A stretch of 64,000 bases of DNA, taken from the NCBI GenBank assembly GCA_035370505.1, contig DAOOVU010000001.1, positions 17,109 to 81,108 on the forward strand. Direction: 5' to 3'. This document shows, piece by piece, positions 49,829 through 55,770 of the stretch. The stretch comes from Candidatus Dojkabacteria bacterium (GTDB taxonomy: Bacteria > Patescibacteriota > Dojkabacteria > SC72). The notes beneath the pieces are model-generated. The model worked only from the letters and a program-made list of their open reading frames with translations. It searched no databases and was not told where the DNA came from. The position numbers and the translations under genes were made by a program. Each line of letters opens with the position of its first letter. Position 1 is the first letter of the stretch.

Positions 49829-50947
49829 TTACATTGTAGGTGGAACTTGAGGAAGTTCACCTGATGGAGTTTCATCAATTTTGGGCTGTATTGGTTGTCC
49901 AGCAGGTTGTTGAGGAATTTTGCTTATTTCACTATTAATCATATTCTGAAAATCATCTTGAGCTGGTATCTCTCCTGTAGTGTCAGGAATAGTAACTGCT
50001 GGTTCTGTTTGCATTGGCTGTGGTTGTTGTGGAAACTGAGAACTATTATCTGGAGACAAAAAATCGCTCGCAACAGATTGATCTAATGTGGGTTGACCAA
50101 ATGAAAGAGTATTGTTATTTTGAAATGTATTAATATCACTTGCACCGTAATTCTGTGCTTGGACTGGATTCTGAGCGACAGGTTGTACTGGTTGAGTCAT
50201 GTCTATGTTTGAAGAGAAAGGTTGCTGAGTTTGTTCCTGTTGTTGTGTCTGGTATGGATAAGGTTGATTTTCTGTTTGTGTTTGTACAGGGGTTGATGCA
50301 GTCTGTCCAATTGTAAAGTTAGGTTGCACTGAGGATTGCATATCATTGCCAGATTGAGGGATTGTTTGTTGAGTATCCATAGAACTGGGTACAGTAGTCT
50401 GATTAACTATATCAGCAAGTGTAGGTTTCGTTTCTTCAGTTTGGGTCTGAGGAGTTGAAACAGCTTGATTATTTGAATCGTTGTTAGGTGCAGAATTGAT
50501 ATCTTCTGGAGCAGATGTAGGCTGTGGAGTTACCTGTACGAGTTCCTGTGCTCCTCCTTTCTTCTTACTACTTATCAAAATCCCAATTATGCTAACAAGA
50601 AGGATAACTGATCCAACGATTAGTACATATGGAAGATAATCCATGTAACTGCTGGATGTACTTTTCGTAGACTTGCTTGTAGTTGTAGTAGTAGTTGTTG
50701 TTGTAACGGGTGTCGTTGTGGTTTCTGCTGTTGTTCCATCAGTTTGTGTTGTTGCATCAGTAGTTTGAGTAGTAGATTGGGTTGTATTTGCATCGTTTGT
50801 ATTTGATGTTGAGGTATCGTCAGAAGTGGTAGTAAATGATGATTCACTTGATGATACTGATACTCCAGAATCTGTTTGAGCAAAAACAGCCATTGGTAAA
50901 ACACAAACTAAAGATACAATAAAAATATACTTAGATAAATTTTTCAT
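49829..50947 (-). CDS. Bitopic surface protein with Thr-rich mucin-like segment and Gln/Pro-rich low-complexity domain
   Basis: Signal peptide, T-rich run (...TTTPVTTTTTTTTTSKST...), TM (LPYVLIVGSVILLVSIIGILI), then a Q/P/T-rich domain. Confidence 0.5.
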   Translation of the reverse strand: MKNLSKYIFIVSLVCVLPMAVFAQTDSGVSVSSSESSFTTTSDDTSTSNTNDANTTQSTTQTTDATTQTDGTTAETTTTPVTTTTTTTTTSKSTKSTSSSYMDYLPYVLIVGSVILLVSIIGILISSKKKGGAQELVQVTPQPTSAPEDINSAPNNDSNNQAVSTPQTQTEETKPTLADIVNQTTVPSSMDTQQTIPQSGNDMQSSVQPNFTIGQTASTPVQTQTENQPYPYQTQQQEQTQQPFSSNIDMTQPVQPVAQNPVQAQNYGASDINTFQNNNTLSFGQPTLDQSVASDFLSPDNSSQFPQQPQPMQTEPAVTIPDTTGEIPAQDDFQNMINSEISKIPQQPAGQPIQPKIDETPSGELPQVPPTM

Positions 50948-52307: not shown

Positions 52308-52573
52308 TATCCCTTAAATGGGTTTTCTAATTTTAGAGCTGATATAGCTGCTTCCATCTGTGGAGATTGTATTCCCCTAGCTATAGCTCTATGCATTCTT
52401 TTTTGTTCTGCCTTGTTAAGGAGATATAGATCACTCTCCTTTTTTTGTTGTGGTATTGAATTTGTATCTATAGCATGTGTTATGAGGTAGTTTTCTTCTT
52501 GAATTGTATTTGTGTTATTGTTCTGCTGATTGTCCATTATCGTCATTATTATTCTCTTCTGGATAGCTTTCAA
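52304..52573 (-). CDS. Small hypothetical protein (89 aa) at the distal end of the VirB4 operon
   Basis: Overlaps the VirB4 3' end by 59 nt; N/Q-rich; no motif. Confidence 0.3.
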   Translation of the reverse strand: MKAIQKRIIMTIMDNQQNNNTNTIQEENYLITHAIDTNSIPQQKKESDLYLLNKAEQKRMHRAIARGIQSPQMEAAISALKLENPFKGY

Positions 52574-55145
52574 CTATTCCCTGAGGAGTTAAATGTCCTT
52601 TCCCTTTTTGTATCTTCATTCTGTCTGATACGACCTGTCCAGAGATTGTGCTGTCTTCGATCTTTTGAAGAAAATCTTTTTGTTGTTGGTATCCTCCTGA
52701 ATTCAATTGCATCTCTTGTTGCTTTAGTCTTTCCTCAAGTTCTTTCTGATATTGTTCTCTTTCCTCTTCTAAGAATGTTTTTTCTGTTTCTTTCTTTTCT
52801 ACTGCATGTTTTATAATTTCTTCTTGTCTTGCAATCTTTCCGTCTTTCATAGGTTTTTGTTGTGTTGGAGTATCAAATACTTGTGCTAATTCCTCCATAG
52901 TTCTTGTGTCAGGCTGTCCCTTTCTTTCAGCAAGTTTTTCAAGGTCTCTTGGATCTGAGGTTATCAACTCATGTTCTGATGTGCTAGAGAGGACTTGGAT
53001 TCCAACATGGTTTGATCCTGCGAAGAATAGTCCTTGTCCTTTATCACAGTTCAAAAGGAAATTTTTTTCTCCATCAGAGAGATTAAAGACTTGCTGTAGT
53101 TTATCTGCGGCGGTAGGGCTTTGCATCATAAGCATTTGCAGAGAGGAGTTGGCAATAATTGCCTTCCCCATGTCATTGTTTAGGAAGTCATTTACATCCT
53201 GTGTAATCGTTGATAGGCCAAGATAGTATTTCCTTGCTCTTTTTGCTATGGAGTACATAAATTTTGCAGAATCTTCAGATTGCATCATATACCATGCCTC
53301 ATCTACTATAAGTATTCTTCTTTTTCTGTCTTTTCTTACTTTTGTCCATATAAAATCGAGCATGAGATACATTGCTAATGGTTTTAGTTCTTCCTGCAGG
53401 TCACGAATACTAAAAACAGTAAGAGGGTTGTCAATTTCAAAATTACTTGCTTCGTTGAATACTCCTGCCCCGCTTCCTATGATGTATCTTTCTAGTCTTC
53501 TTGCCAATCCGTGTGCCTCTTCTTCTGCCATTCCTTTTAATACTTTGTAGAGATCTTCTAAAAGTGGAGGCTGTTTACTTTGTGTAGCTGGATCGTATGT
53601 TATGCCTTTCTCTCTGTAAGTTAGTATGAGAGCTCTGTCAAGTATGGATTCTTCTATATTAGTGAGATTTCTGTATAGTACTTTGAAGAAGCCATGTAGA
53701 GAAAGTAATTTCATTCTTAGCTCGTCATCTCCCTCTTCTGTAGATGATGCCAATTCGAATGGGTTCATTTTATTTCCCTTATCCTGTGAGAATGATATAT
53801 ATGAACCATTAACAGCAGATGCTAGGTTTTCGTATTCTCTTTCTGGGTCAATAATAATTATTTCGGTTCCGAGCATTAAACTTCTCAAAGCTTCTAACTT
53901 TACAAAATAACTTTTTCCAGCTCCTGACTTTGCAAACACAACGGTATTTGCATTCTCAAGTTCAAACCTATCAAAAATCACAAGGCTTTTGTTATGCATA
54001 TTTAATCCGTACATTATTCCATGATCCATAGTTAATTCTGATGTGACGAATGGGAATGTAGTTGCTAAGGATGTCGTATCCATATTTCTTGTAATGTACA
54101 AGTTGTCAATTCCAAGAGGTTGTGTGCTTATAAATCCTTGCTCCTGTTGAAGGGTTGCTGGTTTTGCTGTCACATTTATAGCTGCTAGAGTGGATACTAC
54201 ATTCCTAGATATTTTTTCTAGTTCATCCTTACTTTTTGCATATATTGTAATGTACATCGTGAAATGGAAGAATTTTTCTGTACCTTCAGCTATTGAATCT
54301 TGCAACTGTTGTGCATCGGAGAGAGCAACTTTTAGTGATGGATCTATTACTTTCCTTTCTTCCATTTGTGTATACATTGTTGCTTCCATTTCACCTATTT
54401 TCTTTTTTAATTTCTCAAGTATTGTTTTAGAATCAACTGGGTAATAGAAAGTACTTATTCTGAGGGAATGTTCAAAATTAATAATAGGAGAAAGCCAATT
54501 TGGCCCAACAAATCTAGGATACCCACTTACAAACAGGGTTCTAAAATAGTAATCTCCCATTTGAAGGTGGTTGAAATCGACTTCTAGATCTATTGGAGCA
54601 ATGATATCTTGTAAAGAGATATTAACATCTTCACCAATTATAGATGGAATTACTGAAGAATCTTCTTGAGGAGCTTCTTCTTGTGTTTTATTCTCAGGTG
54701 TTGGAGTCGTGGATTTACTATCCTTGTTTACTTGTGTGGAGATTGTATCAAGAAACTGAAAGAGTGGATTTTTGTTTTGTTTTGCAGGTGTACTAGTTTG
54801 TTGTGTTGTTTGTGAGGAAGTAGTATTTTCCTTTTCGTCCTTGTTTTGTGTCGGCTGTGGAGTAACCTTTATGTTGTTTTTCTTGTTATATTGACCTGCA
54901 AAATAATCAAGAATCTTTAGAAGTGGATTCTTTTTTGGTTTTGTTTTCTCTTCATCAGCAGGGAATGGATCTAAATATTTAGCCCTATTATCATTTGGGT
55001 CTTTTTGCTGTGAAGTTTTTATTGGGTTATTGATAGGATTTTTCTGTAAAGTTGATATTGGGTCTTTATTTAATGTTTTAGTTAAGTCATTCTCAAATGT
55101 TCTGTTGTAATTATTTTTGCTTATGTCTTCCATACTATTCTTCAT
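52515..55145 (-). CDS. virB4: VirB4/TrbE-family type IV secretion ATPase (Gram-positive type) with N-terminal low-complexity extension
   Basis: Walker A VVFAKSGAGKSYFVKL; Walker B ILIVDEAWYMM; a CagE/TrbE-type N-domain (...YYFRTLFVSGYPRFVGPNWL...) preceded by ~170 aa of T/Q/P/N-rich sequence with two copies of a K(K/N)NPL(L/F)x(I/F)LD motif. Confidence 0.85.
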   Translation of the reverse strand: MKNSMEDISKNNYNRTFENDLTKTLNKDPISTLQKNPINNPIKTSQQKDPNDNRAKYLDPFPADEEKTKPKKNPLLKILDYFAGQYNKKNNIKVTPQPTQNKDEKENTTSSQTTQQTSTPAKQNKNPLFQFLDTISTQVNKDSKSTTPTPENKTQEEAPQEDSSVIPSIIGEDVNISLQDIIAPIDLEVDFNHLQMGDYYFRTLFVSGYPRFVGPNWLSPIINFEHSLRISTFYYPVDSKTILEKLKKKIGEMEATMYTQMEERKVIDPSLKVALSDAQQLQDSIAEGTEKFFHFTMYITIYAKSKDELEKISRNVVSTLAAINVTAKPATLQQEQGFISTQPLGIDNLYITRNMDTTSLATTFPFVTSELTMDHGIMYGLNMHNKSLVIFDRFELENANTVVFAKSGAGKSYFVKLEALRSLMLGTEIIIIDPEREYENLASAVNGSYISFSQDKGNKMNPFELASSTEEGDDELRMKLLSLHGFFKVLYRNLTNIEESILDRALILTYREKGITYDPATQSKQPPLLEDLYKVLKGMAEEEAHGLARRLERYIIGSGAGVFNEASNFEIDNPLTVFSIRDLQEELKPLAMYLMLDFIWTKVRKDRKRRILIVDEAWYMMQSEDSAKFMYSIAKRARKYYLGLSTITQDVNDFLNNDMGKAIIANSSLQMLMMQSPTAADKLQQVFNLSDGEKNFLLNCDKGQGLFFAGSNHVGIQVLSSTSEHELITSDPRDLEKLAERKGQPDTRTMEELAQVFDTPTQQKPMKDGKIARQEEIIKHAVEKKETEKTFLEEEREQYQKELEERLKQQEMQLNSGGYQQQKDFLQKIEDSTISGQVVSDRMKIQKGKGHLTPQGIVESYPEENNNDDNGQSAEQ

Positions 55146-55770
55146 CAGGGTTATATATAGTGTAGAACTCAGATATCAACTCTTTGTCTGTTAATTGATG
55201 CCCAAATAATCCCATTCTTCCTAATTGCTTTAGAATATGGTCTCTCTTTGGATACAGAAAGATTTTTGCCTTTTCAATCACTTGAGATGTGTCCATATCT
55301 TCTATTTGTTGCTGCTCTTCTTTGGATTTTTTCTTCTTTAGTGGAGAGACATTTGGAAGTTGACCACCTGGATAGTATGGGATAACTATAAAGAAGCTTT
55401 TATCAAGCACATCATTTTCTACTATCAAATTCTTAACAAACAGTGTATAGATATCAAGCTGTTTTCTTAATCCTTCTGTCATAGGTCTTTCTTTTTGTAT
55501 ATTTAGATAGTCAAGATAGTTAGTAATATCAACTCTCTTTGTCCTTATCAATATTTGAATTTTGAAATTTAGAGAGTTTAATAGGCCTGCAAAAGCATAA
55601 ATTTTATTGTCTTGTTCATAGTCAGCTAAAAGCTCAAAGTTTATGGAAGATGTTTGTAATACCAATGCCACACTCCCATTTTTATTTATAACCAAGTCGT
55701 CGGTTATTTGTTTTATAGCAAGATGGTCTTGTGTTGATGCTGTCGCTCTTGCTCGCGCATTTTTATCCAT
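55135..55770 (-). CDS. VirB4-associated protein resembling the extreme N-terminal segment of Gram-positive VirB4 homologues (possible split VirB4)
   Basis: ...LVINKNGSVALVLQTSSINFELLADYEQDNKIYAFAGLLNSLNFKIQILIRTKRVDITNYLDYL... pattern; ends 11 nt inside the start of the VirB4 ORF. Confidence 0.45.
   Translation of the reverse strand: MDKNARARATASTQDHLAIKQITDDLVINKNGSVALVLQTSSINFELLADYEQDNKIYAFAGLLNSLNFKIQILIRTKRVDITNYLDYLNIQKERPMTEGLRKQLDIYTLFVKNLIVENDVLDKSFFIVIPYYPGGQLPNVSPLKKKKSKEEQQQIEDMDTSQVIEKAKIFLYPKRDHILKQLGRMGLFGHQLTDKELISEFYTIYNPDEE

Follow-up and report, generated by a model that had tools for sequence, protein, structure and literature searches.

The T4SS (type IV secretion system) protein TrsD is remotely homologous to the N-terminus of the ATPase VirB4. 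Among the T4SS components of Patescibacteria it is the most frequent: 2,272 homologues were counted, and 1,664 of these lie in association with virB4 (Quinonero-Coronel et al. 2025, PMC12102498). According to the same work, TrsD has no assigned function in any system, some Gracilibacteria TrsD genes lie apart from virB4, and a TrsD homologue is listed as essential in Ca. Southlakia epibionticum (ML1). The main text of Guglielmini et al. 2014 (PMC4027160) has 0 occurrences of "TrsD", and the homology statement rests on PMC12102498. Here we analyzed a 64 kb stretch of DNA from Candidatus Dojkabacteria (Patescibacteria), called the window below, within which all coordinates are counted. In this stretch a TrsD-like gene stands directly before a virB4 gene whose product starts with a long leader. 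The TrsD and VirB4 split itself is already known, being published for Patescibacteria and also found in Gram-positive conjugation systems. What apparently has not been described is a motif in the leader, its duplication here, and the class-specific side of the gene boundary on which a disordered linker lies. In PMC12102498 the terms "disordered" and "low complexity" have 0 occurrences each, and neither the segments nor the motifs are mentioned.

Gram-positive systems show both arrangements. On a B. subtilis plasmid we found a VirB3-like gene, a gene annotated trsD (199 amino acids, aa) and a DUF87 ATPase gene (656 aa). C. difficile BI1 has PrgI, a 322-aa protein and a 640-aa ATPase. Brevibacillus pBbsI encodes a fused TraC of 810 aa. 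The TraE of pIP501, which the preliminary description of the window had placed with the fused type, presumably belongs to the split TraD and TraE type. On the Pontibacillus plasmid NZ_CP062975, a 274-aa homologue of the window protein (L001 5884-6708; 33% identity, 7e-20) overlaps a 621-aa CD1110 VirB4 gene by 11 nt. The N-terminus of this homologue forms a transmembrane helix, suggesting a membrane location for the detached N-terminal half.

In Dojkabacteria, VirB4 of the T4SS motor module appears to be encoded by design as two polypeptides, a TrsD-like protein and an ATPase. We give this reading a probability of roughly 85%. The two open reading frames (ORFs) of the window encode 211 aa and, in the longest form of the second, 876 aa. 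A natural fused homologue, P0345, allowed both to be placed on a single chain. P0345 is a patescibacterial VirB4 of 787 aa, recorded on at least three contigs from independent samples, with a 273-aa PrgI gene upstream and an M23 peptidase gene downstream. Its residues 12-749 cover positions 3-735 of the CD1110 profile (NF045971) in one stretch. The 211-aa ORF aligned with P0345 residues 7-199 (42% identity, 6e-47), and residues 182-752 of the 876-aa ORF aligned with P0345 residues 213-782 (58% identity). Only 13 P0345 residues separate the two matched regions. Because they align to consecutive parts of the fused protein, the two window ORFs tile one VirB4.

The CD1110 profile led to the same result. 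The 876-aa ORF matched NF045971 (conju_CD1110) with 400.5 bits (E = 1.4e-119), above the curated cut-off of 325. Only its residues 176-716 took part in the match, on positions 185-734 of 752, and the first ~184 profile positions were absent. The 876-aa ORF does not by itself give full-length coverage in a single polypeptide; the upstream ORF supplies the missing part. Pfam matches of the large ORF were P-loop_TraG, AAA_10 and DUF87, and its gene lies beside that of a PrgI/VirB3-like membrane protein, as is usual for ATPases of the CD1110 type.

The 211-aa ORF matched the NCBIfam TrsD/TraD profile (NF041427) with residues 11-90 on positions 13-97 of 201 (E = 1.7e-7, 31.3 bits). It also matched the NCBIfam VirB4_plasma profile, with residues 8-100 on positions 99-195 of 894 (E = 2.3e-5). 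Its setting is that of NF041427-type genes: a free-standing gene of ~200 aa, with a VirB3-like gene upstream and a VirB4-like ATPase gene immediately downstream. A scan against a local copy of Pfam gave no match for this ORF or for two orthologues even at E = 10, and a sequence search of the PDB with the TrsD-like profile gave none either. When the AlphaFold2 model of the TrsD-like protein was compared with the PDB by Foldseek, the 10 best matches were all TrwK/VirB4 chains of the R388 T4SS, with probabilities of 0.57-0.95 (at least 0.8 for nine of the ten). This evidence is weak yet specific to VirB4. We found 623 homologues of the 211-aa protein, and the best 120 were all 210-219 aa long. 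Alignment A1 of 28 orthologues had a mean column identity of 78%, and an exhaustive profile search built on it returned 2,073 relatives. The homologous domain lay at or near the N-terminus in all of the 150 best of these, and one 115-aa fragment matched the second half only. Taken together, the comparisons place the TrsD-like protein as the first half of the VirB4 N-terminal domain, and the product of the next gene as the second half plus the ATPase. The preliminary description had likened the small ORF to the VirB4 N-domain and had seen the large ORF resume at the next block of that domain. Both points hold: VirB4_plasma, P0345 and the TrwK/VirB4 structural matches bear out the first, and on P0345 the large ORF restarts where the small one ends. 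The check it had proposed, whether the two ORFs tile one domain in profile alignments, came out positive with both CD1110 and P0345.

To compare the junction among relatives, we used 80 species-level genome loci, all of the Candidatus Dojkabacteria/WS6 type. Both genes could be scored in 62 of them, which with the window gives 63 junctions. The split was present in 63/63: a TrsD-like gene of 207-241 aa stood directly before a VirB4 gene of ~680-880 aa. The same comparison with orthologues had been called for in the preliminary description, and its outcome is thus clear. The distance from the stop to the first start ranged from -86 to +12 nt. The commonest value was -1 (TAATG, 24/63), and -8 occurred in 11/63. 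The relative frame was class 1 in 32 junctions, class 2 in 30 and class 0 in one. Such variety excludes a shared sequencing artefact and argues against a conserved frameshift signal. At the level of sequence, the pattern looks like the usual picture of translational coupling, and the two genes are most likely co-translated in similar amounts.

At the window junction, our ORF scan reproduced exactly the two ORFs reported earlier and their overlap of 11 nt in different frames. The overlap stands as a matter of longest-ORF coordinates but is probably not real. In orthologues the protein begins with MED(I/L)SKNNYNRTFEN..., at the counterpart of M5 in the window ORF, so the true VirB4 start is probably the conserved ATG one base past the stop (Table 1). 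The junction would then read TAG-T-ATG, and the overlap would probably be an artefact of longest-ORF calling.

The leader between the VirB4 start and the VirB4 body (~171-175 residues) is rich in K (12%), N (12%), T (11%), P (9%) and Q (8.5%). In an AlphaFold2 model that was poor overall, it was mostly coil with pLDDT 25-50. It had been described as a ~170-aa low-complexity insertion. The segment exists, but as a family feature and not as an insertion in this one gene: every Dojkabacteria orthologue carries a leader, ~95-180 aa long, ahead of ...QDI(I/V)APID(L/M)E(V/I)DFNH.... The leader begins with M-E/D-x-NNYNRTFE-SKT..., followed by NRYxDP, an acidic run and a lysine run. Then comes N-P-h-h-K-h-L-D-K-h or a variant of it, and last a variable K/E-rich stretch. 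The consensus of the motif is KKNP-h-h-K-h-LD-K-h, with variants that include KKNFLFTFLD and KKTLPEMILKNLKEIF. The leader motif peptide is KPKKNPLLKILDYFAGQYNKK.

The strict motif pattern was found as one copy in 32/120 best orthologues, and recognisable variants were found in most others. As noted before, the motif is present twice in the window. Apart from the window, two copies occur only in L003, its closest relative. In DNA the copies form a 38-nt repeat, 79% identical, at a distance of 159 nt (53 codons). Copy 1 holds the position conserved in orthologues, and copy 2, shared by the window genome and L003, arose by an old 159-nt duplication. A second tandem repeat was seen in the leader (55003-55027 and 55039-55063; 36 nt, 84% identical), which encodes NKDPISTLQKNP and INNPIKTSQQKDP. 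This 36-nt repeat remodelled the first leader block in the window genome, replacing the ...LQTxGEKYxxFQE... that is conserved in orthologues.

Codon differences between the window and L003 were counted along the gene. Motif 1 was 88% identical in amino acids, with 8 synonymous-only and 3 amino-acid-changing differences. Motif 2 was 75% identical, with 7 and 5, respectively. The spacer between the motifs was only 33% identical, with 5 and 18. The contrast between motifs and spacer argues that the leader is translated and that the motifs are selected islands in it. In the VirB4 core, which is 97% identical to that of L003, 227 synonymous-only differences stood against 15 amino-acid-changing ones. 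Judged by sequence conservation, both gene products are under purifying selection.

With a hydrophobic moment of ~0.5-0.57, the motifs rank among the most strongly amphipathic stretches in the leader, and they are its sole net-hydrophobic segments. AlphaFold2 predicted one leader helix of at least 8 residues, in a low-confidence segment. It falls on motif 1, at residues 71-82 in M5 numbering. The earlier suggestion that the motif could be an interaction peptide gains plausibility from the conservation of the motif within a leader that otherwise evolves fast.

The TrsD-like and VirB4 split also occurs outside Dojkabacteria. In another patescibacterial locus, L088, the same split is found with a PrgI/VirB3-like gene upstream, and TrsD-like/VirB4 pairs are also present at the patescibacterial loci L083 and L089. 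We surveyed the TrsD-like family in its 150 best cluster representatives. One was fused, 27 were at most 240 aa long, and 122 had C-terminal tails of ~30-500 aa. Among 56 tails profiled, almost all were rich in P, Q, T, S or A, and the C-terminal end LPP(I/L)(A/P)EI was found in 30/150 representatives. The VirB4 downstream of a tailed TrsD-like gene was shorter, with 628 aa in L088 and 693 aa in L089; in L083 it is cut off by the end of the contig. In these three loci VirB4 starts with a Pro/Leu-rich peptide, MALSFKLPAISIPFLNKK, MDLPLNLPLPFLNKK or MNLPKLIPTPKNLKFPTLPGLGKK. A disordered segment was therefore seen at the split junction in all lineages compared, on different sides of the gene boundary. 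We searched the 150 cluster representatives with hidden Markov models built from the leader and from its first block. The best E values were ~0.03-0.09 at inconsistent positions, and none was significant for homology between leader and tail.

These observations invite a tentative idea, which we regard as doubtful at present: the constant feature might be a long disordered linker with a short conserved hydrophobic peptide between the halves of the VirB4 N-domain, not the position of the split. In Dojkabacteria the stop/start boundary would lie where the linker begins, so that both the linker and its KKNPLLKLLDKI helix would go with the ATPase. In other classes the boundary would lie near the linker end. 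There the linker would go with TrsD and end in LPP(I/L)(A/P)EI, and VirB4 would start with ...LPxPFLNKK. If this were true, either fission would have happened independently more than once or the gene boundary would have migrated. As a "glue" or membrane anchor, the short peptides could then let a split motor reassemble, and the duplicated motif of the window could be a two-handed tether.

For the two-polypeptide VirB4 as a whole, we propose the following mechanism. The TrsD-like protein and VirB4 would re-associate non-covalently into a functional VirB4 at the PrgI-like membrane platform. The leader of ~170 residues, which is predicted to be disordered, may act as a flexible tether. Its amphipathic helix may dock the ATPase body to the TrsD-like or PrgI-like partner, or to the membrane surface.

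A split gene can also be an accident: the sequencing or the assembly may be wrong, or a formerly single virB4 may recently have been inactivated by a frameshift. Two ORFs in different frames that tile one VirB4 are what such an accident would leave, and fused homologues do exist in P0345 and the 810-aa Brevibacillus TraC. However, 21 contigs from several databases (NCBI, JGI, Logan and ENA) carry an identical 211-aa protein, which has a conserved C-terminus, ...FYTIYNP(D/E)EE. Each of the 63 split junctions has its own sequence, and selection against amino-acid change is strong in both genes. The 120 best VirB4 homologues measure 702-876 aa, so that none is longer than the window ORF or long enough for the fused form. 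An accidental split is refuted by these comparative data, and its chance of being right is negligible. A programmed ribosomal frameshift at the junction could instead yield a fused VirB4, besides or in place of the separate products, and the close abutment or few-base overlap of genes in different frames is compatible with this. Here the varying relative frame speaks against it, since classes 1 and 2 are about equally common and the one in-frame locus is separated by a stop. No slippery motif is common to the junction sequences, and a conserved Met-Glu/Asp start directly at the stop, as in the TAATG junctions, is the usual signature of translational coupling. We consider programmed frameshifting very improbable. 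The three options left by the preliminary description were a genuine two-polypeptide VirB4, a frameshift and a sequencing error. The first is the one supported, and the split in every junction with varied geometry excludes the others.

The TrsD-like protein might also descend from the VirB4 N-terminus and yet have given up the role of a detached VirB4 subdomain to become an independent accessory factor, such as an adaptor or regulator, with the leader motif serving as a membrane-targeting helix that anchors the ATPase. Membrane-targeting helices of the MinD/FtsA type are amphipathic and follow a lysine cluster, as the leader motif does. The tails found elsewhere in Patescibacteria, often with the conserved C-terminal end, and the transmembrane helix of the Pontibacillus homologue would suit such a factor. 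So would the lack of an assigned function and the Gracilibacteria genes that are not beside virB4 (PMC12102498). On the other hand, the TrsD-like gene is adjacent to virB4 in every Dojkabacteria locus where both could be scored. The natural fusion joins the parts by a linker of only 13 residues, which argues that they still fit each other as they would within one VirB4 chain. As for the motif, the N-P and Asp are near-invariant in most copies, which is more characteristic of specific contacts with proteins than of binding to lipids, and docking to a protein is therefore slightly favoured over a membrane anchor. The lysine cluster and the divergent variants keep the anchor alive. We regard an independent factor with a membrane-anchored ATPase as unlikely, though it deserves consideration.

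Several observations weigh against the two-polypeptide reading. The NF041427 match of the 211-aa ORF is far below the curated cut-off of 200 bits; by the NCBI threshold, the window protein is a distant TrsD/TraD relative and not a family member, although it presumably acts as TrsD does. PF26593 (TraC-like) is precomputed for most orthologues and for distant relatives, and a local hmmscan did not reproduce it. The AlphaFold2 model of the TrsD-like protein was mediocre (pLDDT 63), and its TrwK matches were weak, with E values of 5e-3 to 5e-2 and TM-scores of 0.3-0.4. The model of the 872-aa VirB4, built with 58 orthologues, was poor (pLDDT 49, pTM 0.27), and its use was therefore limited to profiling confidence and secondary structure along the leader, with no fold search. 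Motif copy 2 had no predicted helix. Some orthologues carry motif variants without the N-P and Asp, which fit a physico-chemical role no less than one in specific binding. Finally, we infer from sequence comparison that the two chains assemble into one ATPase, and we infer purely on that footing what the motif may do.

The locus as a whole is a chromosomal T4SS ATPase module of four co-oriented genes: PrgI/VirB3-like, TrsD-like, VirB4 and a small conserved ORF. Their coordinates and those of the features discussed above are collected in Table 1. The module is regarded as chromosomal because the flanking genes are housekeeping genes (LepA, RecF, SHMT, FolD, ThyX, Dcd, DnaG, FtsK and KsgA). The first gene encodes a 274-aa protein whose residues 6-87 matched Pfam PF12666 (PrgI) with 33.4 bits against a cut-off of 27. 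A PrgI-like gene is kept upstream of the TrsD-like gene in 77/80 related loci. PrgI of Gram-positive conjugation systems has ~100 aa. In the C-terminal extra of the window protein (~150 residues), weak SdrD_B and CarboxypepD_reg beta-sandwich matches were seen. Versions of 273-464 aa occur in other Patescibacteria, one with a precomputed CarboxypepD_reg domain.

Table 1. Coordinates of the features described. Positions are those of the window unless a locus is named.
Feature	Position	Strand	Basis or remark
PrgI-family (VirB3-like) membrane protein, 274 aa	55776-56600	-	Pfam PF12666; first module gene
TrsD-like protein, 211 aa	55135-55770	-	free-standing homologue of first half of VirB4 N-terminal domain
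Gene junction	55131-55145	-	TrsD-like stop TAG 55137-55135; longest-ORF ATG 55145-55143; conserved start ATG 55133-55131
VirB4 ORF, longest form, 876 aa	52515-55145	-	ORF scan
N-terminal VirB4 leader, 171 aa from M5	54621-55133	-	composition, predicted disorder
Amphipathic motif copy 1, KNPLLKILDYFAGQYNKK	54879-54932	-	conserved position in orthologues
Amphipathic motif copy 2, KNPLFQFLDTISTQVNKD	54720-54773	-	from 159-nt duplication; shared with L003 only
VirB4 body	52998-54620	-	second half of N-terminal domain and ATPase domain; CD1110 positions 185-734
Walker A, AKSGAGKS	53910-53933	-	translation
Walker B, ILIVDEA	53295-53315	-	translation
VirB4 C-terminal charged tail, ~124 aa and stop	52515-52889	-	conserved in alignment A2
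Conserved ORF, 89 aa	52304-52573	-	module 3' end; overlaps virB4 3' end
Lon-like AAA+ protein, 425 aa	51030-52307	+	AAA and Lon_lid domains; convergent to T4SS module
Further PrgI/VirB3-like genes	L084 4183-5004; L088 2548-3942		

The charged C-terminal tail of VirB4 is conserved across Dojkabacteria, specific to them and absent from the fused P0345. AlphaFold2 predicted long helices in it (residues 768-842), the best-predicted stretch outside the ATPase core. The 89-aa ORF had tblastn matches in 56/80 Dojkabacteria loci, with ~47-73% identity in the best matches listed, and its Pfam scan gave no match. The module thus probably includes this ORF as a genuine fourth gene.

Beyond the module, the Lon-like AAA+ gene keeps its syntenic position in 65/80 related loci, and a domain scan of the 425-aa protein detected no protease domain. 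A possible surface protein of 372 aa is encoded at 49829-50947 (minus strand). It combines a signal peptide with a Thr-rich stretch, a transmembrane segment and a Q/P-rich tail, and in 18 related loci it is conserved in part on the downstream side of the T4SS module. We scanned the window for other T4SS genes in ten ORFs of at least 180 aa in 1-40 kb and in the locus flanks at 45.5-64 kb; some smaller ORFs and the 40-45.5 kb stretch lay outside the scan. VirB6, pilins, a coupling protein and a relaxase were not found among the ORFs scanned, which were housekeeping genes or had no Pfam match.

A cultivated patescibacterium reportedly cannot lead its epibiotic life without T4SS genes, a TrsD homologue among them (PMC12102498), so the construction of a minimal T4SS motor is of real interest. 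The locus gives clean comparative evidence that TrsD is the first half of the VirB4 N-terminal domain in detached form. The conserved amphipathic peptide of the leader is a testable candidate for holding together the two halves, or the ATPase and its membrane platform. The value of the locus is modest, as it represents no new kind of system.

Among known systems, the locus resembles the TrsD/TraD and TrsE/TraE pairs of pGO1, pSK41 and pIP501 (the pGO1 subclass of MPF-FATA). In these, too, a gene of ~200 aa lies between a VirB3-like gene and a VirB4-like ATPase gene, and its product, like the window protein, is remotely homologous to the VirB4 N-terminus. Unlike those plasmids, the window locus is chromosomal and lies amid housekeeping genes, and a relaxase or coupling protein was not found among the scanned ORFs. 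The Firmicute split partners compared (Pontibacillus and B. subtilis) have leaders of ~35 residues, whereas the window VirB4 has a leader of 171 aa and a tail of 124 aa. The chromosomal T4SS of Patescibacteria (PMC12102498), in which PrgI/VirB3, TrsD and VirB4 are clustered without a relaxase, are of the same kind, and the window locus is an instance of them. In the other Patescibacteria compared, however, the long disordered segment is on the TrsD C-terminus and VirB4 has 628-693 aa, whereas in Dojkabacteria TrsD is bare and the segment is the leader of VirB4. The single-chain CD1110 VirB4 (P0345 and pBbsI TraC) has the same domain content and order as the two window ORFs, which jointly cover profile positions ~3-734. 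In the single chain the parts are joined by a linker of ~13 residues; in the window they are two chains, with a stop and a start between them and a leader of ~175 residues.

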